From the NCBI GenBank assembly GCA_963826115.1, contig CAWGVS010000005.1, positions 736,001 to 800,000 on the forward strand: a stretch of 64,000 bases of DNA, given 5' to 3'. Each line of letters opens with the position of its first letter. Position 1 is the first letter of the stretch. Below are positions 10,463-32,033 of this stretch, piece after piece. Under the pieces are notes generated by a model. It searched no databases. It was not told where the DNA came from and saw nothing but the letters and a program-made list of their open reading frames with translations. Origin of the DNA: an uncultured Candidatus Rokubacteria bacterium. Its GTDB lineage: Bacteria > Methylomirabilota > Methylomirabilia > Rokubacteriales > DASRDR01. A program made the position numbers and the translations under genes.

Positions 10463-10539
<77 letters not shown>

Positions 10540-12148: not shown

Positions 12149-12225
12149 CGGGGCGTAGCGCAGCTTGGTAGCGCGCCTGCTTCGGGAGCAGGAGGTCGCT
12201 GGTTCAAGTCCAGTCGCCCCGACCA
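12149..12225 (+). tRNA. tRNA-Pro(CGG)
   Basis: Anticodon arm CCTGC-TTCGGGA-GCAGG; GTTCAAGTC T-loop; CCA end. Confidence 0.96.
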
Positions 12226-14413: not shown

Positions 14414-14415
14414 CC

Positions 14416-15432
14416 ATGGCGGGCCTGGAGATCCTGTTCCTGTCCAAGGAGGACGTGGACGCCGTCGAGCTCGGGCTCGGTGAGGCGATGGACGCCATCG
14501 AGCTGGGGCTGCGCGCCCACGGCCAGAAGAAGGTGGTGATGCCCTCCAAGGACCACCTCGCCCTCGACCGCTCCGAGCGCCACTGGAACATCCTGAAGGG
14601 CTACGTCGAGCCGATCGACGTCGCCGGCGTGAAGGTGATCGGGGACTTCGAGGGGAACTACCGGTTCGGACTGCCCTCGGAGCTGGCGCTGATCACGCTG
14701 TACCGGTCGGACACCGGGGCGCCGTTCGCCATCGTCGACGGCACGCTCATCACGTGGATGCGCACCGGGGCGGTGACCGCGGTCGGCGCGAAGTACCTCG
14801 CCCCGGACCGGCCGCGTGTCCTCGCGCACGTGGGCGCTCGCGGCACCGCCTGGTACAACGTCCCGATGCTGGACCGGCTGTTCGACTTCGAGGAGATCCG
14901 GGTCACCAGCAAGCGGCCCGAGTCTCGCGAGCGGTTCGCAGCGAAGGTGTCCGGGCAGCTCGGGAAGCCCGTCCGGGTCACGGCGACGGTCGAGGAGACG
15001 GTGCGGGACGCCGACATCATCATCGACGCCTCGCGGCTCGTGACGGCGGAGGTCCTCGTCAAGGACGCGTGGGTCAAACCGGGCGCCCTGATCCAGCCCT
15101 ACGGGGTGGAGCAGTCCGTCGAGTCGTCGCTCCCGCTCTCGGTCGACAAGATGGTCGTCGACGACTGGAACCAGTGCCAGAAGTCGGAGTACGGGCAGTT
15201 CGCCGCGATGATCCGCGCGGGCGCGCTCCGTGGGGAGCACATCTACGGCGAGATCGGGGAGATCGTCGCCGGGCTGAAGCCGGGCCGCGAGTCGCCCCGG
15301 GAGCGCATCCTCTTCTGGCACAAGGGCTTCGCGATCAGCGACATCGTGCTGGCCCACGTGGCCTACGAGAAGGCCCGGGCCAAGGGGATCGGCACGGTCC
15401 TGAGCTACTACCGCCGCCCCCAGGACATGTGA
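14416..15432 (+). CDS. Ornithine cyclodeaminase / mu-crystallin family protein
   Basis: GVKVIG, ITWMRTGAVTAVGAKYLA, EIGEIVAGLKPGR and GFAISD motifs. Confidence 0.9.
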   Translation: MAGLEILFLSKEDVDAVELGLGEAMDAIELGLRAHGQKKVVMPSKDHLALDRSERHWNILKGYVEPIDVAGVKVIGDFEGNYRFGLPSELALITLYRSDTGAPFAIVDGTLITWMRTGAVTAVGAKYLAPDRPRVLAHVGARGTAWYNVPMLDRLFDFEEIRVTSKRPESRERFAAKVSGQLGKPVRVTATVEETVRDADIIIDASRLVTAEVLVKDAWVKPGALIQPYGVEQSVESSLPLSVDKMVVDDWNQCQKSEYGQFAAMIRAGALRGEHIYGEIGEIVAGLKPGRESPRERILFWHKGFAISDIVLAHVAYEKARAKGIGTVLSYYRRPQDM

Positions 15433-15827: not shown

Positions 15828-15904
15828 GCCCCCGTAGCTCAGTTGGATAGAGCAAGGGTTTCCTAAACCCTGGGCCGGGTGTTCGATTCACCCCGGGGGC
15901 ACCA
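15828..15904 (+). tRNA. tRNA-Arg(CCT); integration site
   Basis: Acceptor GCCCCCG/CGGGGGC; anticodon arm AGGGT-TTCCTAA-ACCCT; GTTCGATTC; ACCA end. Confidence 0.96.
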
Positions 15905-17555
15905 ACTCCGCTACAGCACCCTCGAGCAGCGGGTCCACCGTCACCGTCCCGGTGATTTCGTAGCAGCGACCCTCCGGGGTCTCCCGTGGCGTCAGCGTCA
16001 ACCGGCCCGGCAACAGGCGCCGCAGAATGGGTCGGGCCTCGCTGGGCTCACCGCGCAGCAAGGTGGCCCACTCAGCCAACACCGCGCGCACCATCGCCTT
16101 CAGGGCCGGGGTGACCGTGGGCCGGGTTGACCGACGTCGCGCCTCGACGTTCTGTAGCTGGGCCGCCAGGGTGGCCCGGTGCTGCTCCTGCTCGCGCATC
16201 TTCTCCATCAGGCGCGCCGGGGGCTTGCCATCGGCGATGGCCGACACGAAGTTGTCGAGGATCCGGTCCACTCGCTTCATGTCGCGCTCCAGACGCTGGC
16301 ACTGGGCGTCGAGCGTGGCGTACTGCGCCGCGGCCTCCGCCACGGCCTGCGCCAGCACGTCCTCCAGCAAGGTGGTCGTCAGCACCTCCTCGTCCAACAC
16401 CGCCAGCATCGCCGCGTCCAGGTCGGGCAGGGGCAGGGACCAGCCGTTCGTACAGGTGCCATCGACGCGCCAGCCGTTGCAGACGTAGTAGACGCGCGGG
16501 GTGCCGCGTCGGCTCGTCCGCTTGATTGCATGCATCGCCCCGCCACACGTTCCACAGCGGACCAGGCCTCCGAACAGGTGGCGCGACTCCAGCGCCGGGT
16601 CGGGGCGCGCCCCCGTCTCCCGATGATTGCCGACGCCCCCGGTGTACGTCTGCCGGGTGCGTGCCAGGCGAGCATGGGCGGCGGTCCACAGGGTCTCGGG
16701 GATGATCCGGCACTCGGGCACCTTGACGTCGATCCAGTCGTCGGCAGGGACGGCTTCCTTGACCTTGGTGCCGCCGCGGTCCACCCAGCGTGTCTTGCCG
16801 TAGATCGACCGGCCTCGGTACAGGTCGCGGAAGGCCATCTCCCACAGGCACGTCTTCGCCCACCCTCGGCCCGGTCGTGGCCCCGGCACCCCCTCGGCAT
16901 TGAGCCCGCGGGCGATGCGCGCGTAGCCGCGGCCCTGGGCGATCTCCGTGAACACGCGGGTGACCACGGCGGCCTGGGTCGGGTCGATCACCCGCACCAC
17001 ATGGCCCTCGCGCCGCACGTTGGTGTACCCGTAGACCTTGCCGCCGGCCACGTGGCCGGCGCGTGCCTTGCCCCGCCCGACATCGCGCGCACGCTGCTGG
17101 TCCTGCTGTCGGTGCATCTCATCCACCATCGCCATCGTGGACACTAGGTACCGGTCCAGGAGGGTGTCGCGCTTCACCTCGCTGTCGGTGAGGTAGCAGT
17201 AGATGCGCACCCCGGCGTCGGTGATGCGTTTGAGCGCCACGGGGACCTCCTCCAGCGAGCGTCCCAGCCGGCTTTGCTCCATGGTGACCACCACCTGGAA
17301 TGAGGGCCGGGGTTTCAGGGCGTTCATCAGCCGCAGGAACCCTGGCCGCTTCACGAACTCGGCCCCGCTGATGCCGTCGTCGATGTACACGTGCGCGGGG
17401 TCCACCGTCCAGCCCTTGCGTGTCGCGTAGGCGGTGGCGTGCTCGACCTGGCGGGTGACGCTCTTGGCCTCGTCGGCCACCCCGCCTTGCTCGGTGCTCT
17501 TGCGAGCGTAGATGGCTGCGGTCAGGTGGGGGGGTGCTACACTGGGCCTGCTCAT
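15888..17555 (-). CDS. Large serine recombinase (integrase), 555 aa in integrated state
   Basis: IYARKST catalytic Ser, YIDDGISG, SRLGR, recombinase domain, Zn ribbon CGTCG...YYVC...C, coiled coil; SD GGAGGAGG; stop codon lies inside the tRNA. Confidence 0.95.
   Translation of the reverse strand: MSRPSVAPPHLTAAIYARKSTEQGGVADEAKSVTRQVEHATAYATRKGWTVDPAHVYIDDGISGAEFVKRPGFLRLMNALKPRPSFQVVVTMEQSRLGRSLEEVPVALKRITDAGVRIYCYLTDSEVKRDTLLDRYLVSTMAMVDEMHRQQDQQRARDVGRGKARAGHVAGGKVYGYTNVRREGHVVRVIDPTQAAVVTRVFTEIAQGRGYARIARGLNAEGVPGPRPGRGWAKTCLWEMAFRDLYRGRSIYGKTRWVDRGGTKVKEAVPADDWIDVKVPECRIIPETLWTAAHARLARTRQTYTGGVGNHRETGARPDPALESRHLFGGLVRCGTCGGAMHAIKRTSRRGTPRVYYVCNGWRVDGTCTNGWSLPLPDLDAAMLAVLDEEVLTTTLLEDVLAQAVAEAAAQYATLDAQCQRLERDMKRVDRILDNFVSAIADGKPPARLMEKMREQEQHRATLAAQLQNVEARRRSTRPTVTPALKAMVRAVLAEWATLLRGEPSEARPILRRLLPGRLTLTPRETPEGRCYEITGTVTVDPLLEGAVAELVPPG
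15893..15905 (+). repeat. attL core (tRNA 3' end)
   Basis: 13-bp identity with 24494-24506. Confidence 0.85.
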
Positions 17556-17663
17556 CACGGTCCTCCTCCAAAGGTCGGGCTTGATGGGCCAGCGCCCGGC
17601 GGTGTGCACCGCGCGGGCGCTACCTATTTACGGTCACGCAGCATACACGACCGTCCTGCCAGG

Positions 17664-19046
17664 CTACGCTCTCTTCGCCGACGCCCTCGGCCCCGGCCCC
17701 TCCGTGCGTGCCATGGTCGCGACGGGGGCGGGGATACCCGAGATCAACGCGAACCACGTCTCCCGCGAGACGACCACATCGGCGCGCAGCACGGCCCGAA
17801 TCCACAGTTGGTAGGCCGCGAATGCGCTACCGCTGCTGTCGGCCGCGTCCCGACTGATGGTCAGTTCCAGGGCCAGCCGCAGGCAGATGAACAGGTTCGC
17901 GAACGGCCCGAGGTAGGCTTCGCTTTCGTTTGTCCCGGCGCCGCCGGTGGCACTCACCTGCGTGGTGACGAACTTCTGGAGCCGGCCCCAAGACTCCGGG
18001 GGCCGCAGCGGCTGCTGGGTGCTGTCCTTCAGGCGATCCAGCGCCCCGGCATCCCGCGGGTGCAGAATCAACGACACGCCCTCCGCCGGCCCGTTGGCCG
18101 CCAGGATTCCTTCGTAGGCTTCGCTGATCGTGTCGTAGGTCAGCGCGCCGCCGGCCGGCATCGCGATGATGCCAGGCGTGAACTTGATGCCGCGCGGCTG
18201 GTCCTGGCCGGCGGCGGAGGGATCGCCCCGAAGGGCCGCGAGGTCGAGGCCGTTCGCGAGTTCCTCGCCGAAGACCTGCTCGATGACCGGCGGCGCGCTG
18301 GGCGAGCTGTCCCGGGCCAGCTCTTCGCTCATCTTCACCCAAATCATCTGCGTCCGCGCCTTCGCGGACACGCGATCCAGCACCACGTCGGTCGCCGGGG
18401 CGGCGACATTCTCCGGCTTCCAGAGCGGCGGCCCGGCCGACACGACTCGGGCGAAGTGTAGTTCCTGCGTGTCCATCGGAATCGTGCGAGCCCCGGCCCG
18501 AAAGACGGTACTGGCGGCGCGCGCGCGGTCCAACACATCGAGGGCTATCGCCTCCGGGACGAGATAGCCGCCACTGGCGCCGGGGCTGGTGGCCATCACG
18601 CGCTGTTCGGCCTGGGCGTCGCGCCAGTCCCCGGTGATGATCGCCCGCAGGGCGCGACCGAACGAGAGGTCGCCCGGCCGGATACCATCCGGCAACCGCA
18701 CCGGCACGTGGCTGCGCAGCGACTCGGATGGCGTCAGCGCCAGCACAGACCCTCGGTCGCTGATCGCCGCGTCCTCCTGCCGGCGAGCGGCCCGGGTCGG
18801 CAGCGGCTCGCTCAGTTCGCGCTCCACCGCGTCGAGGTTCTCGCGGCCGGCGATGTACGACCGCCGCGGGGCGTGGTCGGGGTCGAGGGCGGCGATCTGC
18901 TCGGCCGCGCGGCCCTGCACCAAGTCGAGGCGATCCCACTCGGCCGACTCCGTGTCGGTCATCGCGCGGCCCTCGGTGCTGGCCACCAGGGCGCGCATGG
19001 ACTGGACGATTTCTCCCCGCTTCTGCCGTAATTCCGTGAGGGTCAT
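17664..19046 (-). CDS. HK97-family major capsid protein
   Basis: Delta-domain-like N-terminus (MTLTELRQKR...AEWDRL), GGYLVPE, SEELARDS, LDLAALRGD..QPRGI, LDRLKDSTQQPL. Confidence 0.9.
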   Translation of the reverse strand: MTLTELRQKRGEIVQSMRALVASTEGRAMTDTESAEWDRLDLVQGRAAEQIAALDPDHAPRRSYIAGRENLDAVERELSEPLPTRAARRQEDAAISDRGSVLALTPSESLRSHVPVRLPDGIRPGDLSFGRALRAIITGDWRDAQAEQRVMATSPGASGGYLVPEAIALDVLDRARAASTVFRAGARTIPMDTQELHFARVVSAGPPLWKPENVAAPATDVVLDRVSAKARTQMIWVKMSEELARDSSPSAPPVIEQVFGEELANGLDLAALRGDPSAAGQDQPRGIKFTPGIIAMPAGGALTYDTISEAYEGILAANGPAEGVSLILHPRDAGALDRLKDSTQQPLRPPESWGRLQKFVTTQVSATGGAGTNESEAYLGPFANLFICLRLALELTISRDAADSSGSAFAAYQLWIRAVLRADVVVSRETWFALISGIPAPVATMARTEGPGPRASAKRA

Positions 19047-19323
19047 CGGGCACGCTCCCCTACTGCGGGCCTCGGGAGCGGGTGGGAGGGCGTGGCGGAG
19101 GCCCAATCGTGGCCACGCGTCCACCCGCCCCCGAAGCACGCATGCTCGGACGGTGATGGTCGCGCGCCTGATCGCCTGAGCCACAGCCGGCGGGCCAGCG
19201 CAGCGCCGGTCGCGCCCGGTGCCCCACAGGGCCGCGCGCGCCGGTGGCCGGTTCAGTTGTGGGCGCATCATATGGCAGAGCGGGGCTGAGAAGGCAAATC
19301 CCCCTGGTGATACCCTGGTGCCC

Positions 19324-20082
19324 GTGTCTCCGCGGGTCGAAGTCCTTCCCATCCGCCTGATGCTGCCGGGAGCCTTGCCCGAGAGCGACGTTCGCACGGT
19401 CCCGCTCCTGCGGCTCATGGCGGCCACGAACGACACCCGCCTGATGGAGCGGCTGTTCTTGGTGACCCGCCGGCCCGAGAATCACATCGAGAGGCTCGTA
19501 TGCCTCGCAGAGGCGGGCTACTACGGTCGCATGTTCCTGGCGCACCTCTACGAAAGCGGAGAGGCGCTCGGAGCCTTGGACCATGTGGCCCACGCCTGGG
19601 TGACGAACACCGCCGCCAGCTCGGCTGAAGCCCAGGCGGCACTGACCAGCTTGCGGGAGGCCTTTGCGGGTGAACCCACGGCGGGCTTCTACGGGTTCTT
19701 GGCGTGGATGCGCACGAAGGCCGCGTTCCACTACAAGGACGCCTCGTTCCGGGACGCACTGAAGACCACCGGGAGGCAATCGGGCCACGTCATCCTCGGT
19801 AGGTATGCCGGAGCGAGTCGGTACATCGTCGTGGACGTCCTGATGGATGAGGTCCTCAAGAAGGCGGGGAAGGAGATGATGGTGGACTACGACGCGGCCC
19901 TTGGTCGCGCGGTCGAACTGGGGAACGCCCTGGAGCGGCTCGTCGCCCATCTCCTCACCCACTACCTGCAGGAGCGCCCTGCCACGTGGCGCGAGGAACC
20001 GTGGGAGACGGTGCACTGGCCCGCAGCCCTGAGGAAGCGGACGAAACAAAGCGAGACAGACGAAGGGCCGCCGGCATGCTAG
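19324..20082 (+). CDS. Hypothetical helical protein with HEPN-like R-x5-H motif (start uncertain)
   Basis: WMRTKAAFHY motif; the only gene on the opposite strand within the element. Confidence 0.55.
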   Translation: MSPRVEVLPIRLMLPGALPESDVRTVPLLRLMAATNDTRLMERLFLVTRRPENHIERLVCLAEAGYYGRMFLAHLYESGEALGALDHVAHAWVTNTAASSAEAQAALTSLREAFAGEPTAGFYGFLAWMRTKAAFHYKDASFRDALKTTGRQSGHVILGRYAGASRYIVVDVLMDEVLKKAGKEMMVDYDAALGRAVELGNALERLVAHLLTHYLQERPATWREEPWETVHWPAALRKRTKQSETDEGPPAC

Positions 20083-20456
20083 GCCTGGCCCTCCTGATTC
20101 GTTTCGGCCGCCGCGGTGATCTCGGCCCAGGGCACCGCGAGTAGTTCCGTCAGTTGCACGTCCCGGCCTTCGGCATCCACGGGAAACAGCATGACCCGGT
20201 CGAATCCCAGCAGTCCCGCACAGGCGGCATTGAAGCGCGTGGACTCCTGGAAGAAGCGCCGGATGGTGGCCCAGCGTTCCCGTTCCGCGTCATCCGTGGC
20301 CCGCCGCTCGTTGAGCCAGTGCCGCGCATCCCGGTCGAATCCGTAGGCCAGCGCCCCCAGCACGTTCAGCGGCTGGCCCTGCAGCAGCCGCACCGTCTGC
20401 AGGTGGGCCAAGGCCACCGCGGTGCCGGGTGTCATCGGTCCGGGGTCGGTTGTCAT
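20079..20456 (-). CDS. Hypothetical protein
   Basis: ATGA overlap with terS stop; 125 aa of protein-like composition. Confidence 0.65.
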   Translation of the reverse strand: MTTDPGPMTPGTAVALAHLQTVRLLQGQPLNVLGALAYGFDRDARHWLNERRATDDAERERWATIRRFFQESTRFNAACAGLLGFDRVMLFPVDAEGRDVQLTELLAVPWAEITAAAETNQEGQA

Positions 20457-20926
20457 GGGCGGCCCCCCTCCTGCGCCCGCAGCAGTGACTCCATGGCGTC
20501 CGGCGGGGCCGCGGGCGTTAACGGTTCCACCGTGCCGCGGGCTGCCGGTGCCAGCCCCAGCGCGCGCAATGCGAGCAGACAACGGCGCCACGCATCGGCC
20601 ATCAGCGCGCACTCGGGCCGTACCCGGATGAGTCCGTTGTGGGCGTACGACTCTCCGTGCTCACGGAGGAACGCGCGGTGCCGATCGAAGTCGGCCCGTG
20701 CACTGGCCGCCAGCAGGATCGCGGCGCCGTCTCCCCGCGTGGCGAGCCGCTGCGCGTCCATCTCGGCCGCCAGGGCGTCGTAGTGGGCGCGCACGTCAGC
20801 ATCGAGCCCCAGCGGGGCCGGCGGCGCTCCCACGTCCGCGGGTTTCATCTCCAGCGCCGGCCGCTCGCGGTCGGGGCGCAGCGTGCCGCGGCGGGCCTTC
20901 GATTCACGGCGACGGCGAGGAGGCAT
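20453..20926 (-). CDS. Phage terminase small subunit, P27 family
   Basis: RGTLRPDR, PPAPLGLD and RPECALMADAWRRCLLALRALGLAPAAR match the P27-type TerS pattern. Confidence 0.88.
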   Translation of the reverse strand: MPPRRRRESKARRGTLRPDRERPALEMKPADVGAPPAPLGLDADVRAHYDALAAEMDAQRLATRGDGAAILLAASARADFDRHRAFLREHGESYAHNGLIRVRPECALMADAWRRCLLALRALGLAPAARGTVEPLTPAAPPDAMESLLRAQEGGRP

Positions 20927-21755: not shown

Positions 21756-22283
21756 TCCAGGGGCTCCAACGACGACGGCCGCTGCGGCAGGCGGGCACCG
21801 AGACGACGCGGGCCGGGGTCGGCGGCCGGTGCCGGCGGGGGTGAGGGCACGCTCGGCTGCGGGGCCGGCGCCAGGGCGCTCGCCCGGTGCAGAAACTCCG
21901 GGGGCAGGCCGCCCAGCCGGCGCAGCGCCTGGGTGTACACGGCCTGCACGACGGCCTCTTGCTGCTGGAGCCACTGAAGCTCCCGGCGGAACGGAGCCAG
22001 CCGATGGTCGCGGGTGCGGGCCGTCGTGGCCGTCGCGAGCGCCGTGCAGCCGGCTGACGACGGTCTCCGTGCAGCGTGGGCAGGCCAACGCGGTGCTCTG
22101 GTCCTCCGTGTTGAAGACTGCGAACGTGACGAGGAAGTGATCGAGCAGGACCCCACACCAGGCGCAGCGGGTCAGTCGGGGCACGAACCACGACAGACGG
22201 TCAATCGGTGGCGGCACCGGTCGCCGGCGGCGCGGCTTGCCCTTCTTCGTCGGCTGGGTCATGTCGTCGGGCTGGCCGCTCAT
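21752..22283 (-). CDS. Hypothetical Zn-finger protein, possibly frameshifted or two genes
   Basis: CAWC...CPRC in the frame starting at 22283; a second frame (RRELQWLQQQEAVV...LEPLE*) ends at the Hjc start. Confidence 0.4.
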
Positions 22284-23266
22284 GCGGCCTCCGCCCCGAC
22301 GTTGCCCGCGCCCCAGCCATACCGAACCAGATCGCCCCAGCGGCGCGGTCGGCCCGTCACGCTGGGGTCGTCGTCGGGGTCGGCCACCTCCAGGTCGTCT
22401 CCTGGTGGCGGGGCCGGTGCCTGCGCCCCGCCGTCGTCGCCGGTCGGGTGATCGTCGTTCTCGGTGTGCATCCGTGCCTCCGGTTCTCGCCCGTAGGTTG
22501 CGCAGCGCGCCAGCGTGGCCATGAATCCATCGTCGCGGTCCAGGATCGGTCCGATCCGCTCCGGTCCGGTTTCGATCCGGCCCCTTGAGGCTGAAAGCCC
22601 ATCCGAACCCCCCCGTGCGTCGGGGGGGTAGGGGGGGTTCTTTCGAACCCTTTCTGTCGGAGTCTGAGAAGAAGTCGGCGGGACCATCGGCGCTCGCGTG
22701 TCTGGGACCATCGGCGCTCGCGCAACACCCGGCGCGGAATCGGTAGACCTGGAGCGGCGATTCCTGGGCGATACCATCGGCGCTCGCGGGTCGTCTACCA
22801 TCGGCGCTACCATCGGCGCTGACCCCCCTAGCATCGGCGCTCCGCTGGGCTGCACCATCGGCGCTGGCGCCAGGCCGTCACTCCGTGATGGCACGTCTTC
22901 GTGCGGGGTTGCGGTGCCACGGACCATCGGCGGTGACGCGCCGTGTACCATCGGCGCTTCCAGGCCCATGGCCCCCGGCAGGATGCGGATGGTGGTGAAG
23001 CCGGCGCTGCCCTCGTCGGGGTACCGCACAGCCTCCGTGGCGATCCAGCCGCGGGTCCGCAAGGTCTGAAGGAACCGACTCACGGCACGCGGGCTCCACC
23101 CCCAGCGCCGGGCGAGTTCGACCTGGGACGTGTCGAGCACCAGCGCGCCTGTGTGCCAGTGTGCGGAGAGCAACAGGTACAGCCAGGCGTCCAGGCGGTT
23201 GATGCGTCCCGTTGGCCAGAGCGGATCATCCAGGAGCGAACGCGGCAGCTTCACCCAGCCGGTCAT
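22280..23266 (-). CDS. Phage-type replication initiator (wHTH) with internal iterons
   Basis: MTGWVKLPRSLL...DAWLYLLLSA...SQVELARRWGWS..VSRFLQTL...GWI replisome-organizer-like N-terminus; repeated APMV peptide. Confidence 0.75.
   Translation of the reverse strand: MTGWVKLPRSLLDDPLWPTGRINRLDAWLYLLLSAHWHTGALVLDTSQVELARRWGWSPRAVSRFLQTLRTRGWIATEAVRYPDEGSAGFTTIRILPGAMGLEAPMVHGASPPMVRGTATPHEDVPSRSDGLAPAPMVQPSGAPMLGGSAPMVAPMVDDPRAPMVSPRNRRSRSTDSAPGVARAPMVPDTRAPMVPPTSSQTPTERVRKNPPYPPDARGGSDGLSASRGRIETGPERIGPILDRDDGFMATLARCATYGREPEARMHTENDDHPTGDDGGAQAPAPPPGDDLEVADPDDDPSVTGRPRRWGDLVRYGWGAGNVGAEAA
22683..22958 (+). repeat. Iteron-like array, 9 x ACCATCGGCGCT (putative origin)
   Basis: Copies at 22683, 22707, 22773, 22797, 22809, 22830*, 22854, 22923* and 22947 (* = one mismatch). 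Confidence 0.8.
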
Positions 23267-23469
23267 TCCCTCGTCTCCGGCCGAGTGCCCGGCTGGTCCG
23301 ACTCCGCGGCCAGCCGACGCTCGGCCTCGCGCAGGATCATCCTCGCCAGCAGGCCCACCAGGTCCTCGTACTCGACCGACCCGCGGGTCGGCACGCGGAA
23401 GAGCCGTGCACCGGCGACCGGCCGCGCCTGGTGGATCACGCGGGCGGGGCGGGGGCGCGCTGTCCTCAT
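23263..23469 (-). CDS. Small hypothetical protein (68 aa)
   Basis: ATGA overlaps with both the XRE gene and the rep gene. Confidence 0.55.
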   Translation of the reverse strand: MRTARPRPARVIHQARPVAGARLFRVPTRGSVEYEDLVGLLARMILREAERRLAAESDQPGTRPETRE

Positions 23470-23687
23470 GGCTGGCCGTTGCGGGCGAGAGGCGGGTCGA
23501 ACAGGTTGCCCAGCGGGACGCGGAGGGAGCGAGCAAGGCGCACCTTGGTCTGCCAGGACGGCACGGACAGACCTCGTTCCGCGCGCGAGATGGTGCCGAT
23601 GTCGAGGCCGGTCAGGTGGGAGAGGTCGCGCAGCGTGAGGCCACGCTCCTTCCGCCAGCGCCGCAGAGGATGCGGGTGCGCGCCCAT
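23466..23687 (-). CDS. XRE/Cro-like HTH regulator
   Basis: LRRWRKERGLTLRDLSHLTGLDIGTISRAERG. Confidence 0.88.
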   Translation of the reverse strand: MGAHPHPLRRWRKERGLTLRDLSHLTGLDIGTISRAERGLSVPSWQTKVRLARSLRVPLGNLFDPPLARNGQP

Positions 23688-23920
23688 GGGTCCACCACGC
23701 GGTCACAAGGTGGCTGGCGAGCGCGAAGCGGCACCGCCATGGTGCTGAACCGCTCGCCGGACCGGCACCCGCTCGTTGTGTGGGCGCGCGCGCAGGTGCT
23801 CGCTGAGAGCACCGCCGATCCGCGATGTGGGTGGGGACGCGGGGTGGTGCTCTCAGCCGTATCATCTACACCGGCCCCATGGGCAGCGCAACAAAAAAAC
23901 GCTTGGCTCGGGTCGCCGCG

Positions 23921-23995
23921 TCAGGCGGCGCGACGAAGGGTGACGATTGTCCGGATCGGCCAGGCGTAGCGCGGGCCGGACCCCGCCGGGGGCAC
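23921..23995 (-). repeat. Internal att / integrase C-terminal tail module, copy 1
   Basis: Reads VPPAGSGPRYAWPIRTIVTLRRAA* on minus strand; core CCGGGGGCAC at 23986-23995. Confidence 0.85.
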
Positions 23996-24045
23996 ACCCT
24001 TACACCTGGTGCGCGGTGCTATCCAGAATTCGCGCGGGCGCCCGC

Positions 24046-24372
24046 TTACTTGAGCATGCGAATCATCAACGCGACGACTAGTAGACTGGAGATCGGAACG
24101 GTCAGGACCAACCAGGTTAGGACATGGAGTTGCCGGCGAAGTCTCAGCAGGGCAGTGTCACCGCGAAGGATCTCCGCCGATCGCTGCCGATAGAAGAAGA
24201 ACAGCTGTTCCGGATGGCGTATCCCCCAAAAGGCCTCGGGCATCACCTTCTCTGCAACGTTGGGGTACCGTCGCATGAACTGAAGCTGCAATCGGGCGCC
24301 CACGATGCCCATTGCAAGGAAGAGGATCCCGTTGCCGAGGAACAGAAGCACACCTACCAGCGGGCTGACCAC
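24046..24372 (-). CDS. Small two-TM membrane protein (cassette cargo)
   Basis: 108 aa with hydrophobic helices at both ends; lower GC than its flanks. Confidence 0.7.
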   Translation of the reverse strand: MVSPLVGVLLFLGNGILFLAMGIVGARLQLQFMRRYPNVAEKVMPEAFWGIRHPEQLFFFYRQRSAEILRGDTALLRLRRQLHVLTWLVLTVPISSLLVVALMIRMLK

Positions 24373-24428
24373 GACCCCACCCCCGCGCGACTCCTCAGGT
24401 TTGTGTCGGCGGCCGCTATTCTACGCTC

Positions 24429-24506
24429 CTACGCTGCGCGCCGGAGCGCGACGAGTCGCCGGATCGGTCGCGAGTAGCGTGGGCCGGACCCCGCCGGGGG
24501 CACCAA
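24429..24506 (-). repeat. attR with integrase C-terminal tail module, copy 2
   Basis: Reads LVPPAGSGPRYSRPIRRLVALRRAA* on minus strand; core at 24494-24506. Confidence 0.88.
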
Positions 24507-24548
24507 TTAATCAAGTAGTTACGCGACACCATTTCTGAGACGAGCCGG

Positions 24549-24572
24549 TTTTGTGGCGATTTTTGTGGCGAT
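24549..24572 (+). repeat. Perfect tandem 12-bp repeat TTTTGTGGCGAT x2
   Basis: Seen directly, about 43 bp beyond attR. Confidence 0.7.
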
Positions 24573-24761
24573 CTTGAGTCGGAGGTCCTGAGACGGCCCC
24601 CAACATCCCAGGCGGCGGAAGGAACCGTTATCATCCCAGTCGTGGGCTAGGCGTCGGCTACCTACCGACGTTTAACGAGCAGAATCCTCGCCGCCCTGCC
24701 CGCGGAATGTCCCCCGAGGCGTTCCACCCGAGGAGAAGCGACACGTAGAGGAGGGCGATCA

Positions 24762-25187
24762 ATGCCGGCGAATCCGCTCATCGGGACGTGGCGGCTCGTG
24801 TCGTGGGAGCTGCGGGACGCGGATGGCCGTGTCACGTACCCCTGGGGTCGCGATCCAGTAGGGTTCATCACGTATACCGTGGACGGGCGCATGGCTGTGC
24901 AGTTTGGGCGTTCGGACCGCGCTCAGCTCTCCGTTGCCGATTGGCTGGCCGCATCTGACGCGGAGATCGTGGCGGCGGCCCGGGGCTACTTCGCATACTG
25001 CGGCACCTACGAGTGCCGAGACGACACGGTCGTGCACCGGCTGGACCTCTGCCTGATGCCCAACTGGATCGGCGGAGAGCAGGTGCGCCAGGTCGCGTTG
25101 AAGGGGGACACCGTCACTCTCTTCACGCCGCCCACCCAGCTCGGCGGCCAGCAACGGGCCAGCAGCCTCGTCTGGCGGCGAGTGTGA
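24762..25187 (+). CDS. Lipocalin-like domain protein
   Basis: LIGTWRLVSW, GFITYTVDGRM, YFAYCGTY, PNWIGGEQVR and LVWRR. Confidence 0.85.
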   Translation: MPANPLIGTWRLVSWELRDADGRVTYPWGRDPVGFITYTVDGRMAVQFGRSDRAQLSVADWLAASDAEIVAAARGYFAYCGTYECRDDTVVHRLDLCLMPNWIGGEQVRQVALKGDTVTLFTPPTQLGGQQRASSLVWRRV

Positions 25188-25221
25188 AGCCAACCCCGTA
25201 AGCGACAGGCTCGTGGGCTAG

Positions 25222-25252
25222 TGAACCGCCCCGGGAAACCCGGGGCGGTTCA
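25222..25252. mobile_element. Abutted IS3-family-like terminal inverted repeats without transposase
   Basis: TGAACCGCCCCGGG-AAA-CCCGGGGCGGTTCA, a perfect 14-bp IR like IS629/IS6110-type ends. Confidence 0.6.
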
Positions 25253-25416
25253 GTCGCACGGTGCGAGCTTGGGCGCTTCCGTTCTTCGCTACGCGTCCTG
25301 GCCATCGCTTTTCAAGGCCATGAAAGTGTGGGAGGGGTTATGTACCATCTGAACGACTCGACCCACACGGAGGTCGATCCAAGCGCGGCAGTTCAATGCT
25401 CACCAGGAGGCGGGAC

Positions 25417-25914
25417 GTGACAACACACACCGCGGAGAACCCCGGCGAGGCGCAAGCCAAGCGTCTTGAGCATGTCTACGAGGAGGTGGCCAAGCTGCTG
25501 CGAGACCCCAAGGTGGCCTCGCGTCTGCGCACGGCGCCGGGTGAAAATGAGTGGTCAGCGATGCAGACGCTGGGACACATGACGGAGCTGATCCCGTACT
25601 GGTTGCATCACTGTCGCGCCCTGATCGCCGCGACGGGAGCCCCGCCCACGTTCGGACGCACGCCCGGCTCGCCTGAGCGACTCGCTGGGGTCGCGTACGG
25701 GGCTGCCGCTCAACCCGACGTGCTGTTGTCCCAGCTAGAGAAGGAAGTTCGGGCAGCAGCCGGCACGATCCGGAACCTGTCCACAGCCGAGCGCGGTAAG
25801 CGGGGTATTGACCACGAGAGGGGCGAGGTGACCGTCGCCGACGTCCTCGAGAGGTTCATTGTCAGCCACGCCGAAGGGCACTTGGCACAGGCACAGGCCG
25901 CGCTTCGGGGTTAG
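25417..25914 (+). CDS. DinB-family protein
   Basis: SD AGGAGG; EWSAMQTLGHM and HAEGHLAQ metal-binding His pattern. Confidence 0.8.
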   Translation: MTTHTAENPGEAQAKRLEHVYEEVAKLLRDPKVASRLRTAPGENEWSAMQTLGHMTELIPYWLHHCRALIAATGAPPTFGRTPGSPERLAGVAYGAAAQPDVLLSQLEKEVRAAAGTIRNLSTAERGKRGIDHERGEVTVADVLERFIVSHAEGHLAQAQAALRG

Positions 25915-26071
25915 TCATCGGCCTCCGGCACCCGACGTGGTCTTCGCCCTTGACGTGGACTGGCGGCCCGCAGGCGCGACCCGACGGCTGGCCCGTGGGC
26001 AAGCGCGGCCTTTGATCTCAGTCCCGCCGCGCGATGATGAGCCAGCGAGGTAACTCGGCACCGCTGCGCAC

Positions 26072-26215
26072 TTACTCGATCACCTCATCCGCCCGTGCCA
26101 GCACCGCCGAGGGCAGGTCGGTCGGCTTGGCGCCTTTGAGGATCTTGTCCACGTAGGTGGCGACGCACCGAAACAAATCACCAAGGGCTGCACCGTGAGA
26201 GATGAGGCCCCCGGA
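26072..26215 (-). pseudogene. Remnant of ABC_sub_bind-family substrate-binding protein gene
   Basis: GGLISHG...[15 protein letters not shown] joined directly to [12 protein letters not shown], indicating an internal deletion; no 5' part. Confidence 0.75.
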
Positions 26216-27188
26216 TCAGCGGGTGGAAAACTCCTGCTGGATGCGAGCCACGTCGGTGATGTTGTTGGCCAGGAGCAGCTGGAGCAGCACGCGGGCCTTG
26301 GGCGGGTTGAGATCGAGCGCGGCCACGAAGCCCAGTTGGTCGTCGTTGAGCTCCGCGTTGCGGAGTGTGAAGCCCGAGCCGACTCGGCTGGAGCGGACCA
26401 CGATGACCCCCTGTTTCGCGGCGGCGGACAGCGCGTCGACGACCGCCTTGGACGAGTTGCCGTCGCCGACGCCGGCGAGGACGATACCCTTGGCGCCGCG
26501 CTTCACTGCGTCGGACACCTCATCGGCCATCATGTGTGAGTGCGAGTAGATAATGTCCACGCGGGGGAGGGGAGCCTTGTCGGGCGCCTTGAAGCGAGGA
26601 CGCGGGTAGTTCACAAGGGGAGCGACAAACCGCACGGACGCGGCGTCGACGTAACCGGCCGGGCCGCTGTTCGGGGAAGCGAACGTCTGCAGGCTCGTGG
26701 TGTTGGTCTTGGTCGCGTCGCGTGACTCGTGGATCGTGTCGTTCAGGACGAGCAGCACGCCGCGCCCGCGCGCCTCCTCGGAGGCGGCGACCTTCACCGC
26801 GGCGTAGAGGTTGGCAGGGCCGTCGGCGCCGACGGCGGTGGATGGGCGCATGGACCCCACCAGCACCACCGGCTTGTCGCTGGCGACGACCTGCTCGAGG
26901 AAGAACGCCGTCTCCTCCATGGTGTCGGTGCCGTGCGTGACCACGACTCCGTCGGCATCTCCCGTGCTGAAGAGCTCGTTGATCCGCCTGGCCAGGGTGA
27001 CCCACACCTCGTCGTTCATGTCCTGGCTGCCGATATTGGAGATCTGGTCGGTGGTGAGCATCGCGAGCTTCTCGATGCCAGGGACGGCGTCGATGAGGTC
27101 TTTGGCGGATGCCTGGCCCGACGTGTAGCCCACCTCGGAGATGGTGTTGGCCTTGCCGGCGATCGTCCCGCCCGTGGCGAGGATGGTC
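26216..27188 (-). CDS. ansB: Type II L-asparaginase, apparently 5'-truncated
   Basis: ILATGGTIAG, NIGSQDM, THGTDTMEETA and LNPPKARVLL; no canonical in-frame start upstream of the catalytic Thr motif. Confidence 0.85.
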
Positions 27189-27862
27189 CAAAGCCTGTTG
27201 CGTGCCCCCTCCCCAGGCTCGTGTCAGCTCAGCGGGCGGATTCCCAGGGTGGCCGGACTCTATCGCGCGGCGGGCCGGCCCGGCAAGGGCCAGAGCGGGC
27301 CGGGACAGCCTCGGGGAGACGTAGGTGAGAACCGGCTTCCAGGGGTCGACGGGCAGACTGGGATGGCGGCGGCTGGGACGTCGAGATCGACGGCGGGTCA
27401 CGGGGCGGTGAGTGAACAGTACGGCGACGGCTGGGCCGCCAGTCCGAGCGCGCCGACCAGATGCCGCACACGTGCGGTTCCGTCAGCGCCCCAGGGTCCG
27501 CCGCGGGCCGCCGCAGCGCGGACAGACCAATGCTCCGGTCTCTACGCCGCGCGAATCAGAAGCGTCCCGCCAAGGGGAACTGTGTCATACCGGGCAGTCT
27601 CCTTCGGGGCCACCAACTCTTTCGAATACCTACCCGACCGAGTCCGCGACGATCCCGGCCGATTTGGACCGTTCTGACACTGAACCACTCGGATCTCTCC
27701 GACCAACCGGAGCCAAAAGTGGATCGACGTGTAGACCCCGGGACCACGGTATACTGGGGGCCTCGAATCACGCCCGGATCGGCCGCAAAGCGATTGAGCT
27801 TCTGCGGTACCCGCCTCCCCGTGCAACGAGCCACGCAGCCATCCCCCGGGTGAGGTGTCTTC

Positions 27863-28138
27863 ATGACGAACGTCGATCCCGAACTTGCTCGGCCGCGATT
27901 CACGCTCCACGGCCCGATCCGGATCCTGGACCTCCCGGAGCGGCGGCTGAGCCTCGGCGAACGTAATCTCTGGCTGGCGCCGGACGTCCCGACCGGCGAC
28001 CTCGAATTCGGCGCGGAGGTGGTGGCGAAGGGCTACAAGGAAGAGGATCGATGGATCGTGGATCTCATCACGATCACCAGCGTCGCGGCCTCGAGGCGCC
28101 GGCCGATCTCACTTCGAAGCTCGCGACCTCGTTACTAG
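27863..28138 (+). CDS. Small hypothetical beta-rich protein
   Basis: SD GAGGT; 91 aa of plausible composition. Confidence 0.5.
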   Translation: MTNVDPELARPRFTLHGPIRILDLPERRLSLGERNLWLAPDVPTGDLEFGAEVVAKGYKEEDRWIVDLITITSVAASRRRPISLRSSRPRY

Positions 28139-28596
28139 CCGTGAGGGAGCCGCATCCGGAAGCGGTCGTGGAAGGTCCGAGAGCCACATCCAGTAGAGGG
28201 CGGGTAGACCAGGACGCGCGGGGCGCGGCGTCGGAGAGCTCGGAGCCGGCCGGGGGCGGCCGAAGGGCGGGGACGAGATCAGTCGCGCGACGCGCCGACC
28301 ACGCTCTCGCCGTCGTGCGCGAGCAGGATTTCGCCGTTCGACAGGGCCGTGATCGTGAAGTCCTCCGCGTCGCTCCGCCGCTTCTTGTCGTCGCGGACGT
28401 CACACATCGCAGGAGGTTGGCAAGGGTCCACGGGCCCGCACCAGGTGGTGCCAGGCCTAGTGTCACTAGCGGTGTCAGTTCAGGAGTACACCTTACGTAC
28501 CGTTGACCTGTTACCGCCCGTCGGGCAGTATGGCCGCGTCCTTGCGATGCAGCTACCTACGTGTCAACCCGAACCGTCGAGAGAATGGAGTGTCCG

Positions 28597-28905
28597 ATGC
28601 GCTTTGTCATGAAAGTCAGCATTCCGGTCGAGAAGTTCAACGCTGCGGTCCGAGACGGGAGCGCAGGTAAGAAGCTCCAGCAGATCCTGGACGACACGAA
28701 GCCTGAGGCGGTGTACTTCTGGGAGGAAGACGGCAAGCGCGGAGGCATCATGGTCGTCAACCTCGAGAAGGCGTCCCAAATCCCAGCGTTTGCCGAGCCG
28801 TGGTTCCTGTCTTTCGATGCGAGTGTGGCGTTTCACCCTTGCATGACACCGCAGGATCTCGCTGCGGCGGGTCTGGACGCGCTGGGAAAGAAGTACGCCC
28901 GCTAG
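28597..28905 (+). CDS. Small conserved-type hypothetical protein (DUF3303-like)
   Basis: KPEAVYF..EDGKRGG...SQIPAFAEPWF...HPCMTPQDL. Confidence 0.75.
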   Translation: MRFVMKVSIPVEKFNAAVRDGSAGKKLQQILDDTKPEAVYFWEEDGKRGGIMVVNLEKASQIPAFAEPWFLSFDASVAFHPCMTPQDLAAAGLDALGKKYAR

Positions 28906-29259
28906 AAGGTTCGGTACCGAGATCGACACTCCGGCTTGACGTGGGTCGGGAGGTCGGAGGGGTGGAGCCCGGCCGGTGAGGCCGATGCCCAGCATTCGCG
29001 GGGCGACACCGGCGAGCTTCATCGCGCGTTGCTGTCGGAGGTGCGGAGGCGGCCGAGCCGGTAGGGCCGGATCCACGTTTCTCCGGTGTCGGAGCATTCG
29101 ATCCGCGGTCGCCACGTCTACACCGAGCTCTTGCGCGATCGTGGTGCAGGAATGCCCCCTCCCGCCTCGCGTCGCCAGCGCGTCGGTGACGTGCACCGGG
29201 CCGATTCTGGTCCTCTGGCGTCGCTTGGAGGGCACGAGTGGGCCGCGTTCGTGTTTCGA

Positions 29260-29349
29260 TGCCGTGTGAACAAGCTCGAAGCCGGGAAGGAGGACCCTTC
29301 ATTGGCCACGATCAGTTCGCTCGCCAAAGCGCCCTCGGCCTGCCGGTGA
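29260..29349 (+). pseudogene. XRE HTH remnant
   Basis: VNKLEAGKEDPSLATISSLAKA without its N-terminal helices. Confidence 0.45.
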
Positions 29350-29369
29350 CGGCGCTGCTGGAGTAGGAG

Positions 29370-29915
29370 ATGCCCAGTCGGCTCCTGGTCGAGCCCGAGC
29401 AAGAGCACGTCGAGCCGGAAAATGCCGTTGGAAGTTTCTCCCTGTTTCGGATCGCAGCGCGCGGGGGAGCATCGCGGCGGCGCGGTTTCGGCGTAGCTGC
29501 ACTTCTCTTCTTTCTGTTTGACGGGTGCGCCGCGTCGGGACCGAAGCTTAGTCCGGCGGACTACGCATTCCATAGCGTGGTGCTGCCAACGGCGGAATAC
29601 CCGGCGGTCTATCCATTGCCCAGCGTGGAGCCTCAAATCGAGCTCCACTGGCGGGTGATCGTGGATTCGAACCGTGTTCAAGCCGACGGATTGATGGAGC
29701 GGCAGCGTGAGTCCCACATCAAGGAGGCGTGGCTGCAGCTCGTCGGAATCGACGCGACGGGCCGGATCGTGAGCTTCACGCCGCCAACCCGGTTCTCCTG
29801 GCGATCTGCCAGCGCGCTCGAGTCGTTCATGATTGCGCTCGAGCCTCGGGGCGGCGAGAAGCGCTACGAAGTGCAGCTGTACATGTTCGAGTTTGAGCCG
29901 CAGTTGACGCATTAG
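29370..29915 (+). CDS. Hypothetical probable lipoprotein
   Basis: Basic plus hydrophobic segment ending DGC, followed by a beta-rich domain; start uncertain. Confidence 0.6.
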   Translation: MPSRLLVEPEQEHVEPENAVGSFSLFRIAARGGASRRRGFGVAALLFFLFDGCAASGPKLSPADYAFHSVVLPTAEYPAVYPLPSVEPQIELHWRVIVDSNRVQADGLMERQRESHIKEAWLQLVGIDATGRIVSFTPPTRFSWRSASALESFMIALEPRGGEKRYEVQLYMFEFEPQLTH

Positions 29916-30044
29916 TCCGGCGGCCCGCGATGCTCTTGTCATGGCGTCGTGGAGCTTAGCCAGAGCGGTGATGCGGGCCACGCGGCCGTGGTGACTCAGG
30001 CGTCGTTCTGACTGGGGGCAAAGGCGCGGCTGGGCCGATGGCGA

Positions 30045-30110
30045 CCTCGAGGCCGGTTCACGTACTCGCGGGTGATCTTTGCCCGTTTCGCCAGCTCGGC
30101 CTGGCCATAT
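30045..30110 (-). pseudogene. XRE HTH remnant
   Basis: QAELAKRAKITREYVNR followed by a frameshift. Confidence 0.4.
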
Positions 30111-30200
30111 TCTTGGTCCCGCAGATCAGATGATGTGGATGAGGGTGGCCGCCGTCGAGAGGACGAGATACAAGAAAGCCGCGGCGGATACCGATGAGAG

Positions 30201-30644
30201 CTAACTGGCGCATTTGAGTGTCCGTACTCGCGTCTGCATGTACTTCACGAACTCAGGCGAGTAGTCACCACAGTTGAAGACACCCTGTTCCAGATAGCCA
30301 CGGTGTTGGCGAAGTATTGAGGCGATGGCTCTCTCCCATCGCGGGTCATTGCCAACCAGGTCCCAAAGAGTCTCGGCAGTGAACAGCGCGTGCGTGGCAA
30401 ACCAGCCATATCGGGCATCCACGGGTTGGTCGTGGCTTCGGCTGGCCAAGTCAGGGTGCTCTACGGTCAGCTTGAGGTACTCCTGAAGAACGCCGAGGGC
30501 AGCAACTTGCCGTTGCTCGGCCGCGCTGCGCTGATACGTCAGCACCCCGAACACCACGGATACGGCGGTGACGACTGCGCCAAGAATCGTCGCTAAGTGC
30601 GCCGGGCGCTGCCATCTCAGTTCAGGTGTGGCAATCCTGTCCAC
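30201..30644 (-). CDS. Hypothetical protein with N-terminal TM helix
   Basis: 147 aa; lower GC and atypical codon use suggest foreign origin. Confidence 0.7.
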   Translation of the reverse strand: MDRIATPELRWQRPAHLATILGAVVTAVSVVFGVLTYQRSAAEQRQVAALGVLQEYLKLTVEHPDLASRSHDQPVDARYGWFATHALFTAETLWDLVGNDPRWERAIASILRQHRGYLEQGVFNCGDYSPEFVKYMQTRVRTLKCAS

Positions 30645-30762
30645 CGGCGGCCTCCATCGCTATGCGCGGGCGGGACGGTCGGTGCAGCGGGGAGAGTAGC
30701 GCAGCGCCCGAGGGCCGAGGGCTGACCCGCAGTCGATTCGACGCCACGACACGTGAACTTCT

Positions 30763-30774
30763 CCGGGGGCACCA
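30763..30774 (+). repeat. Further copy of the tRNA-Arg 3' end (possible attR of an older island)
   Basis: Exact CCGGGGGCACCA in the same orientation, intergenic. Confidence 0.55.
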
Positions 30775-31040
30775 TTGTCAGGCAGTCGAGATCAGCCGCC
30801 GCCTAGCCCGCGAGGCCTACGCCACTCGTCATACTTCGGCTCGCAGCGCGGGCATGTCGGCGACTCGACCCGAGACGAACCTGAGGAGCTTCCCGTTCCT
30901 CGTAGGCCAGGTGGAAGCACTTGCCTTGGATGCCCGACTCGCGGAGCGATCCGCTGGCCGGGCAGCCTTGCAGGGGCTACGCCGCCACGAGGTCGGGGCA
31001 AGCCCGACCGACGTGGCGGCGACGCGCAGCCGAGGGCCGC

Positions 31041-32033
31041 TCAGCTCCCTGGCGCGTTGGGGACGAACTGGTTGGTGTAGAACGCGTCGGCGCTCATGCT
31101 CGTCTCCAGTCCCATGAACTGCTTCATGAGCGACAGTGTCTGGGCCCAGTCCTCGGGCGCGAGGTAGCCGATCGGCTTGCCGGCGGTGGCCTTCGACGGC
31201 ATCAGCGAGATCCCGACCCTGAGCTGCTCGAGGCCGAGCTCGGTCTCGAGATCGGCCTTCACCTTCTGTCCGGCCTTGATCGCCGCCGCCGGGTCGGCGA
31301 TCGCGGCCTGGAAGCTGCGCACCGTCGCCTTGACGAATCGCCGGACGAGGTCGGGGTTCGACTTGATGGTGTCCTCGTGGGTGTGGATCTGGAGCCCGGT
31401 GGTGTTGACACCGTACTTTGCGTACCCGAAGTCGGTGATCGGCACGCCTTGCCGCGGCAGGGTGATCGACTGGTTGTCGAGCCCGGCCATGATCGCCTCG
31501 ACGCGCTTCTCGGCGATCGCCACCATCTTGCCCGCGCCCTCGACGCGCAGGATCTTGACCTTGTCGCCGTCGACGCCATTGGCCTTCCACAGTGCGGGCA
31601 GCAGCTGAAGCCCCGCCTCTCCGGGCGCGCTGGCAATCGTCTTGCCCTCGAGATCCTTGAGCGCCTTGACGCCGGCGTCGGTGCGCACCGAGACGGCGTA
31701 GGGCGAGGAGCTGGTCACCGACATGACGGCGCGGATCGCCCCGCCCTTGGTCGCGACGTTGATCACGCTGGGGCCGTCGGACAGGCCGAACATGTCGCCC
31801 TTTGCGCCGACGGTCTGCGCCGAGCGCACCGAGCCCTGACCCTCGCCGATCTCGAGCGCAATGCCCTCCTCGCGGTAGTAGCCGCGCTCGAGCCCGAGAT
31901 AGAAAGGCGTGTGGAAGCCGTACATGATCCAGTTCAGGCGGAACGTCACCTTGTCCTGCGCGGACGCGCCGCCGGCGGCGAGCAACGCCGCCGCCAACAC
32001 GGCGCTCGCGGTCACGAATCTCAGGATGCGCAT
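31041..32033 (-). CDS. NMT1/THI5-like ABC transporter substrate-binding protein
   Basis: Signal peptide; FRLNW..YGFHTPFYLGLERGYY, LKDLEGKTI and NPDLVRRFVKA. Confidence 0.9.
   Translation of the reverse strand: MRILRFVTASAVLAAALLAAGGASAQDKVTFRLNWIMYGFHTPFYLGLERGYYREEGIALEIGEGQGSVRSAQTVGAKGDMFGLSDGPSVINVATKGGAIRAVMSVTSSSPYAVSVRTDAGVKALKDLEGKTIASAPGEAGLQLLPALWKANGVDGDKVKILRVEGAGKMVAIAEKRVEAIMAGLDNQSITLPRQGVPITDFGYAKYGVNTTGLQIHTHEDTIKSNPDLVRRFVKATVRSFQAAIADPAAAIKAGQKVKADLETELGLEQLRVGISLMPSKATAGKPIGYLAPEDWAQTLSLMKQFMGLETSMSADAFYTNQFVPNAPGS

Follow-up and report, generated by a model that had tools for sequence, protein, structure and literature searches.

Duplicated integrase tails behind a tRNA-Arg(CCT) gene in a Rokubacteria genome, a probable record of serial integration by large serine recombinases

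Two 75-nt copies, in direct orientation and 508 bp apart, lie behind a tRNA-Arg(CCT) gene in the window, a stretch of 64,000 nucleotides from an uncultured Candidatus Rokubacteria bacterium. Judged from their sequence, these copies are P arms of attR-type sites that hold the C-terminal tail of a large serine integrase as it would be read in the excised form. Serial site-specific integration followed by decay at a tRNA hot spot (tandem accretion) probably left the 508-bp remnant that separates them. The features at the two junctions are as follows.

15828..15904, plus strand: intact tRNA-Arg(CCT), left junction (attL); called by ARAGORN, Rfam tRNA score 67 bits
15893..15904, plus strand: 12-nt core CCGGGGGCACCA, exact also at 24494-24505 and 30763-30774
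15888..17609, minus strand: large serine recombinase, 573 aa, predicted integrated isoform; Pfam Resolvase, Recombinase and Zn_ribbon_recom
23921-23995, minus strand: inner copy, predicted P arm of an attR-type site plus the tail VPPAGSGPRYAWPIRTIVTLRRAA and a stop
23996..24045, no strand: 50-nt spacer after the inner core, with ACC in place of CCA and without an integrase remnant
24046..24372, minus strand: small hydrophobic protein P0002, 108 aa, an orphan cargo gene; from its translation and relatives
24429-24503, minus strand: outer copy, predicted P arm of a second attR-type site plus the tail VPPAGSGPRYSRPIRRLVALRRAA and a stop; its core keeps CCA

The large serine recombinase carries three domains, all of which scored above their cut-offs (PF00239, E 1.3e-21; PF07508, E 1.6e-16; PF13408, E 3.6e-13). 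Its 3' end reads GTG CCC CCG GGG TGA (...AELVPPG and a stop), and the stop codon lies inside the 3' end of the tRNA, which is the single tRNA-Arg with the CCT anticodon in the genome. We propose that the members of this large-serine-recombinase family integrate into the 3' end of tRNA-Arg(CCT), that their attP sits within the last codons of the integrase ORF, and that integration alters the C terminus of the integrase. In the integrated state, the integrase would read into the tRNA antisense and stop at ...VPPG. In the excised circle, translation would continue through the core into the P arm, which would add a conserved tail of about 20 aa, in most cases with Ala-Ala at its end.

The two copies were re-read and aligned. 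Their coordinates and 75-nt lengths, the minus-strand 24-aa peptides VPPAGSGPRYAWPIRTIVTLRRAA and VPPAGSGPRYSRPIRRLVALRRAA, and the identity of 19 of 24 residues between these peptides were exactly as the initial annotation had reported, and we could also confirm its observation that four of the five codons of the LRRAA ends differ silently and that the stop changes from TGA to TAG. At the nucleotide level, 59 of the 75 positions are the same, and the 16 differences are distributed over codon positions 1, 2 and 3 as 5, 2 and 9. The tail frame was the best kept of the six frames (20 of 25 positions including the stop, versus 12-17 of 24-25 in the others). When 16 random substitutions were simulated in 30,000 trials, an identity of at least 19/24 aa arose by chance with P = 0.004-0.007, and for this identity combined with an intact ORF whose stop keeps its codon position, P was 0.0008-0.0009. 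The similarity is bounded by the tRNA-like core at one side and by the stop codons at the other. Within the core-proximal 30 nt (GTAGCGYGGGCCGGACCCCGCCGGGGGCAC), a single base differs between the copies; a pair of this kind arose in 0 of 100 shuffles.

Both copies open with GTG CCC CCG in the same phase as the end of the integrase, and it is because of this in-frame start that we assign them to the P arms of attR-type sites, each of which would hold the final 21 or so codons of a serine integrase gene. The initial annotation had associated the copies with att sites and had proposed that they become coding only through recombination, once an att core links them to the serine recombinase gene; both points were supported. 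It had also stated that neither copy has an upstream gene of its own. This is the case for the outer copy, which has an in-frame stop one codon upstream; upstream of the inner copy, by contrast, no stop interrupts the frame for 54 codons. This open stretch runs into the end of the 108-aa gene, which is read in a different frame, and it showed no integrase likeness (best E 0.69). No promoters or terminators were found in a scan of positions 23400-24800.

Three exact copies of the 12-nt core were found, all on the plus strand; with up to 1 mismatch, the chance expectation was 1.14. The inner copy holds the first 10 nt of CCGGGGGCACCA. Exact GTGCCCCCGG core sites occur 53 times in the genome, and only 2 of the 53 carry such an integrase tail. 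By eye, the reconstructed attP reads GTAGCG-N14-CC-N14-CGCTAC. GTAGCG lies 14 nt from the inferred centre in both P arms, the same distance as that of CGCTAC on the P' side, and from this arm symmetry we infer that the first two core bases (CC) are the crossover. All 48 tRNA spans ending in CCA look like the real tRNAs of the genome, and every convincing tRNA gene encodes this CCA. A tRNA joined to the inner flank would be unusual, because the inner core is followed by ACC and not by CCA. Over about 25 nt, the flank of the outer core is similar to what follows this tRNA in several relatives. We do not call this outer flank native, since some of the similar flanks are parts of islands with a tyrosine integrase. 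Between the inner and outer cores, the right flanks are unrelated.

Relatives of the integrase were collected at a threshold of E <= 1e-60, which gave matches in 27 of the 183 genomes of the order. Widening the search from the order to the phylum yielded no further relatives, and a scan of genome contigs with the integrase gave one locus only, with a 23-aa match. Integrase ORFs that end with VPPG and a stop in tRNA-Arg(CCT) were present at six related loci, two of them decayed. Far-end tails were read only at the two of these six loci that had enough DNA and an exact far core; the in-frame tails there are VPPEGLARLAQQPIEILIAA and VPPGWAARSRPVAFSATWRPAA, of 20 and 22 aa, and they finish with ...PIEILIAA and ...ATWRPAA before the stop. 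An uninterrupted integrase among database proteins, P0011, ends with VPPGANERAYNIQVSVLVRAA, and an uninterrupted but pseudogenised integrase copy in the genome L031 ends with VPPERFAAFAQHPIDVLLVA and a stop. In the tRNA-Arg clade, eight of ten tails end with AA, one with VA and one with AG; the background of AA endings is 1.75% of 145,950 stop-to-stop frames in this genome. Fifteen integrase relatives from IMG/VR were also considered: three ran off the contig, one was not read through and four ended in tRNA antisense, and the remaining seven complete ORFs, which did not end in tRNA antisense, finished with AA (five) or VA (two). A search of IMG/VR with the pattern GTGCCCCCGGNGGGGTCCG gave two hits, both unrelated and with no integrase upstream. 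Relatives that target tRNA-Glu were left outside the tail rule, as their far-end repeats give no Ala-Ala tails. One such relative, in L107, belongs to an element of about 10.3 kb whose far end bears two partial tRNA repeats, at 1645 and 1792, 147 nt apart; this right end, too, is doubled, and it has no Ala-Ala tails.

The tag of the host tmRNA, ADTQLALAA, likewise has an Ala-Ala ending. In the AlphaFold model of P0011 (mean pLDDT 81), the tail is placed in a beta strand (residues 325-333, pLDDT about 70-86), and a low-confidence linker precedes this strand. Translation of the tail in the excised form is well supported by the comparison of sequences, and the tail may act as a degron like the ssrA tag, as a structural strand, or as both. 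Given its beta-strand placement in the model and its Ala-Ala ends, the two roles are not separable here.

Between the left junction and the inner copy, the resident 8.1-kb element has three further recognisable genes.

17664..19436, minus strand: HK97-type major capsid protein (PF05065, E 5e-22; phrog_10)
20453..20926, minus strand: small terminase subunit (PF05119; phrog_83)
22280..23536, minus strand: HTH / DnaD- or O-like replication protein (Pfam and PHROG matches)

With its integrase, capsid, small terminase and DnaD/O-like genes, the element resembles, in predicted gene content, a capsid-encoding phage satellite. Large terminase, portal and tail genes were not found by Pfam or PHROGs among the ORFs scanned. 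The capsid ORF has 590 aa, and the HK97-type domain covers residues 289-564 only; the N-terminal region of about 280 residues may be a fused protease or scaffold. Inside the DnaD/O-like gene, at 22675-22958, at least six copies of the repeat ACCATCGGCGCT are spaced 36-93 nt apart (repeat families D1 and D4), and they resemble the iterons of a replication origin located inside the gene for the initiator. No homologues of the capsid, terminase and replication proteins were detected in other tRNA-Arg elements, in the genome L091 of the same genus or in positions 24504-31500 of the window. The inner copy is probably the resident element's own right end. The host context on the other side of the tRNA is ordinary, with tRNA-Pro GGG and CGG at 10463-10539 and 12149-12225, a sigma-70 gene at 12626-14413 and an ornithine cyclodeaminase-like gene at 13867-15432.

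The 508-bp unit contains one intact gene, its only ORF, with flanks of 50 and 56 nt. This gene, which the initial annotation had called low in GC and two-TM, lies in a dip in G+C (about 60% versus about 70-72% around). The predicted product, P0002, matched no Pfam or PHROG family. Over its length, it is 73% identical to the metagenome protein P0004, and for this reason 24046-24372 is, by its sequence conservation, a real gene. The motif RHPEQ(L/V)xFF is also present in two more distant relatives of P0002. A search of a large protein collection at E <= 0.01 gave only two matches, one of them at 99% identity, and no relatives were found in IMG/VR; within the order, the gene occurs in 1 of 183 genomes, that of the window itself. 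Neither a core nor a tail was found beside the two metagenome relatives, which lie on contigs of 1.2-1.3 kb. An atlas search with P0002 returned hypothetical clusters only, and UspB on 11% of the members of one cluster is a weak lead. The unit has att cores at both ends, the left one without CCA, and a tail that is 19/24 identical to that of the resident element. No remnant of an integrase or of another element gene was detected within it, nor was an integrase 3' remnant found beside the inner, the outer or the 27613 junction.

The array extends further behind the tRNA, where two more features were recognised.

27542..27613, minus strand: degenerate third tail module, VAPKETARYDTVPLGGTLLIRAA and a stop, from a relaxed scan, with the decayed core GTGGCCCCGA
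30763..30774, plus strand: bare exact 12-nt core without a short tail, from the core search; likely the outer limit of the array

The distance from the module at 27613 to the bare core at 30763 is about 3.2 kb, and the two features split the region 24.5-30.8 kb into units of about 3.1 and 3.2 kb. The genes at 24.5-31 kb are lipocalin-like, DinB-like, asparaginase and others, with no integrase in this region. In L091, three tails lie behind the same tRNA, at 16653, 14786 and 14060, with the endings ...GVLILRAA, ...RLQIRAA and ...SVLLAG before their stops, and all three are intact ORFs. All three are fused, on their far sides, to 3' remnants of serine integrase genes. The remnant at 16416-16630 has a match at E 2.5e-15, that at 14710-14778 is 87% identical to residues 543-565 of the window integrase, and that at 13967-14068 is weak (E 0.009). 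From their sequence, these P-O-P' (P arm - core - P' arm) junctions would be the product expected of serial integration beside a resident element. The other array units are 0.7-3.2 kb long with several genes, or have integrase remnants. The third tail, the bare core and the three L091 modules show that the duplication is not unique.

Several further observations concern the region behind this tRNA in the relatives. At 16620-16652 of L091, 13 nt (GATGTGCTACTGC) occur twice in tandem, and this duplication puts the integrase remnant out of frame immediately ahead of the core. A tyrosine integrase of 415 aa (18006-19253), with homologues in L095 and L097, adjoins the same tRNA-Arg(CCT) in L091; hence, two unrelated integrase types use this tRNA. 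Nine of the regions downstream of the tRNA in relatives comprised at least 6 kb, and tails were found among them in L091 only. The contigs of many relatives stop no more than a few hundred bases past the tRNA, as expected at a variable hot spot; in L096, L097, L098, L100 and L102, they end about 100-400 nt behind it, which suggests strain-level variation that disrupts assembly. Window positions 30188-30711, which hold a 147-aa ORF (30201-30644), are about 90% identical to L091 14162-14684. The core adjoining this segment has opposite orientations in the window and in L091, which hints at an inversion between cores.

From these features, we infer the order of the insertion events. The resident 8.1-kb element would be the newest occupant, with the inner copy as its P arm and tail. 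The outer copy would have belonged, as P arm and tail, to an earlier, related occupant, of which the 508-bp unit would be the remains. Older occupants would have decayed, and their P arms would have survived with the tail coding intact. The 508-bp unit, with a foreign membrane-protein gene, att cores and no integrase, would then resemble a cis-mobilizable accretion remnant. The silent differences between the copies may reflect purifying selection on the tails in separate lineages while the elements were active in their free form; selection on the duplicate in its present position cannot be read from them. A scar of tandem integration was the outcome that the initial annotation had named as refuting its own proposal of cassette capture, and this scenario fits better than a cassette because of the additional tail and core relics in the array and the L091 tails with integrase remnants.

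Some observations do not fit easily with accretion and simple decay. The inner junction is without an integrase remnant, unlike all three L091 junctions, so the remnant must have been cut off precisely at the core, unless the unit lacked an integrase from the outset. In addition, the unit is very compact and looks tidier than random decay would leave it. Two further points against the accretion account are that the inner core is followed by ACC and that only one other tailed array was found in the nine regions of at least 6 kb. Recombination between attP and attL is not expected of classical serine integrases (established knowledge; see also the abstracts of PMC3783163 and PMC5499577), which makes the accretion route hard to place. 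The exact core cut and the tidiness of the unit keep alive two other explanations, a composite element with two right ends and a mini-element moved in trans.

In a composite element with two working right ends, the integrase, together with a directionality factor, would pair attL with either the inner or the outer site, and circles of 8093 or 8601 bp would result, the larger one carrying the membrane-protein gene. This explanation, which is compatible with a relic origin of the unit, is possible but unlikely. The two candidate right ends do lie 8093 and 8601 bp from the left core, as the initial annotation had calculated. Both P arms keep the core-proximal 30 nt with one change as well as the GTAGCG spacing, both tails are intact ORFs, and the outer core has retained the CCA of the tRNA together with a flank like those of relatives; moreover, accreted remnants are cis-mobilised in other elements, according to parts of PMC5704250. 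However, the relic tails of L091 are also intact in units without an integrase, so intactness is no proof of activity, and no directionality factor was identified. Public reads gave no circle joints. Five runs contained no more than 5-8% of the sampled words, and the source sample may be among the runs; four of them were used, and they yielded low-depth contigs identical to parts of the element. A 151-nt contig from X1 covers 23958-24108 without a difference and bridges the inner junction, another contig covers 15864-16014 and bridges attL, and none bridges the outer junction. The lack of joints and circle junctions in these contigs, at their low depth, weighs neither for nor against the 8093-, 8601- and 508-bp circles. 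A broader, joint reading is that the integrase has two isoforms depending on the integration state (free, with a beta-strand tail and Ala-Ala; integrated, with a single Gly and the stop) and that the detached tail/att modules are live secondary right ends, which would let a satellite-like element gain or drop genes such as the 508-bp unit, a form of gene capture through accretion by a serine recombinase. We regard this combination as doubtful.

The initial annotation had suggested att-mediated cassette capture or a non-autonomous mini-element, loosely like an integron. In the corresponding reading, a dedicated cassette system, the serine integrase would insert and excise a 508-bp integrase-less mini-element in trans, and what lies behind the tRNA would be cassette arrays. 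The compactness of the unit with its one intact, conserved gene, its left edge without an integrase remnant and the serial tail/core modules in two genomes would be in keeping with such a system. Nevertheless, we consider it improbable. The recombinase is a serine enzyme, and no attC-like single-strand fold was found in the copies: in four folds, one for each strand of each copy, z ranged from +0.55 to +1.15, and 140-184 of 200 shuffles folded as well or better. The variable one-gene cassettes that had been anticipated were absent from the relatives compared. No att module was found beside the cargo gene elsewhere, the other units differ in size and content, and no unit was seen twice in different places. 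Two direct copies 508 bp apart would also result if the right end had been duplicated in tandem by a local event without site specificity, and if the copies had then diverged and a gene had been inserted, but this is very improbable: the repeat comprises 75 nt only, with the core and the stop codon as its limits, 21% of the bases differ with a synonymous bias, the intervening DNA differs in G+C, and the right flanks of the cores have nothing in common. Hardly credible is the view that the repeat is merely a protein-binding att half-site, with peptide conservation as a by-product or by chance. The near identity of the core-proximal 30 nt is what a binding site would show, yet the core-distal 41 nt, at an identity of only about 63%, keep 9 of 13 residues as well as the position of the stop. 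The simulation (P about 0.001) and the tails of similar length and ending across diverged relatives, including uninterrupted ORFs, also argue against it. Serial integration and decay remains our preferred account, and under it the 508-bp piece is most likely the leftover of an earlier insertion, not an integron-like cassette. The duplication would be a serial-integration scar at a tRNA hot spot, possibly a cis-mobilizable one.

Taken alone, the duplication would be a scar of an ordinary type that is known from other integrative elements. The integration-state-dependent C terminus of the integrase is the more novel part; in the literature searched, of which the coverage was partial, we found no description of a serine integrase whose gene runs across its own attP. 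Should translation of the tail be confined to the excised form, the tail would provide a serine integrase with a built-in sensor of its integration state, and it could tune the stability or direction of the integrase without a separate regulator. Serine integrases are widely used as genome-engineering tools. Repeated tail modules could also serve as a readable record of past insertions at one tRNA, and they point to a simple way in which small satellite-like elements may acquire cargo.

Integrons consist of serial units that each end in a recombination site and lie next to a recombinase gene, and in this respect they are similar to the array described here. Three things on which they rely were not seen at this locus: the tyrosine recombinase IntI, attC sites that fold as single strands, and a common promoter.

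A close parallel to the 508-bp unit is found in integrative and conjugative or mobilizable elements. Tandem accretion of ICEs and IMEs, including CIMEs of the ICESt1/ICESt3 type and members without an integrase, is treated in parts of PMC5704250. There, a decayed element keeps its att sites without an integrase, a later element of like specificity inserts beside it, into the same end of a tRNA or other gene, and composite excision is possible. The 508-bp unit shares the traits of a CIME in that it is flanked by att sites and has no integrase or transfer genes, only a 108-aa ORF without a family match. CIMEs, as portrayed in those parts, mostly involve tyrosine recombinases, whereas here a large serine enzyme is present and the att arm also encodes the integrase tail. 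The ssrA islands of Dehalococcoides, which use the serine recombinase DsiB, form tandem arrays with integrase-less members (portions of PMC3146451). As in the window, the serine-recombinase gene lies beside attL at the 3' end of a gene for a small RNA, and the tandem islands are marked by 3'-end repeats; some of them have no integration module and were proposed to be cis-mobilizable. They differ in that the target is tmRNA rather than tRNA and the repeat is 20 bp long, and these portions of the paper make no mention of an integrase ORF crossing att or of peptide-coding repeats.

Two other systems resemble the integrase itself. In the mycobacteriophage BPs, attP lies inside an ORF, and integration removes a C-terminal extension with an ssrA-like tag; the tyrosine integrase of BPs is also said to carry a C-terminal proteolysis signal (sections of PMC4557955). 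The split gene in BPs is the repressor, whereas here it would be the serine integrase itself, and proteolysis is a possibility suggested only by the Ala-Ala ends. The archaeal "suicidal" integrases of the SSV type have att within the integrase gene and target tRNA genes, and a review calls them exclusive to archaea (parts of PMC8371274). According to the same parts, they are tyrosine recombinases that are split into two inactive halves. In the window integrase, by comparison, about 20 C-terminal residues would be exchanged upon integration, and all of the recognised domains stay intact.
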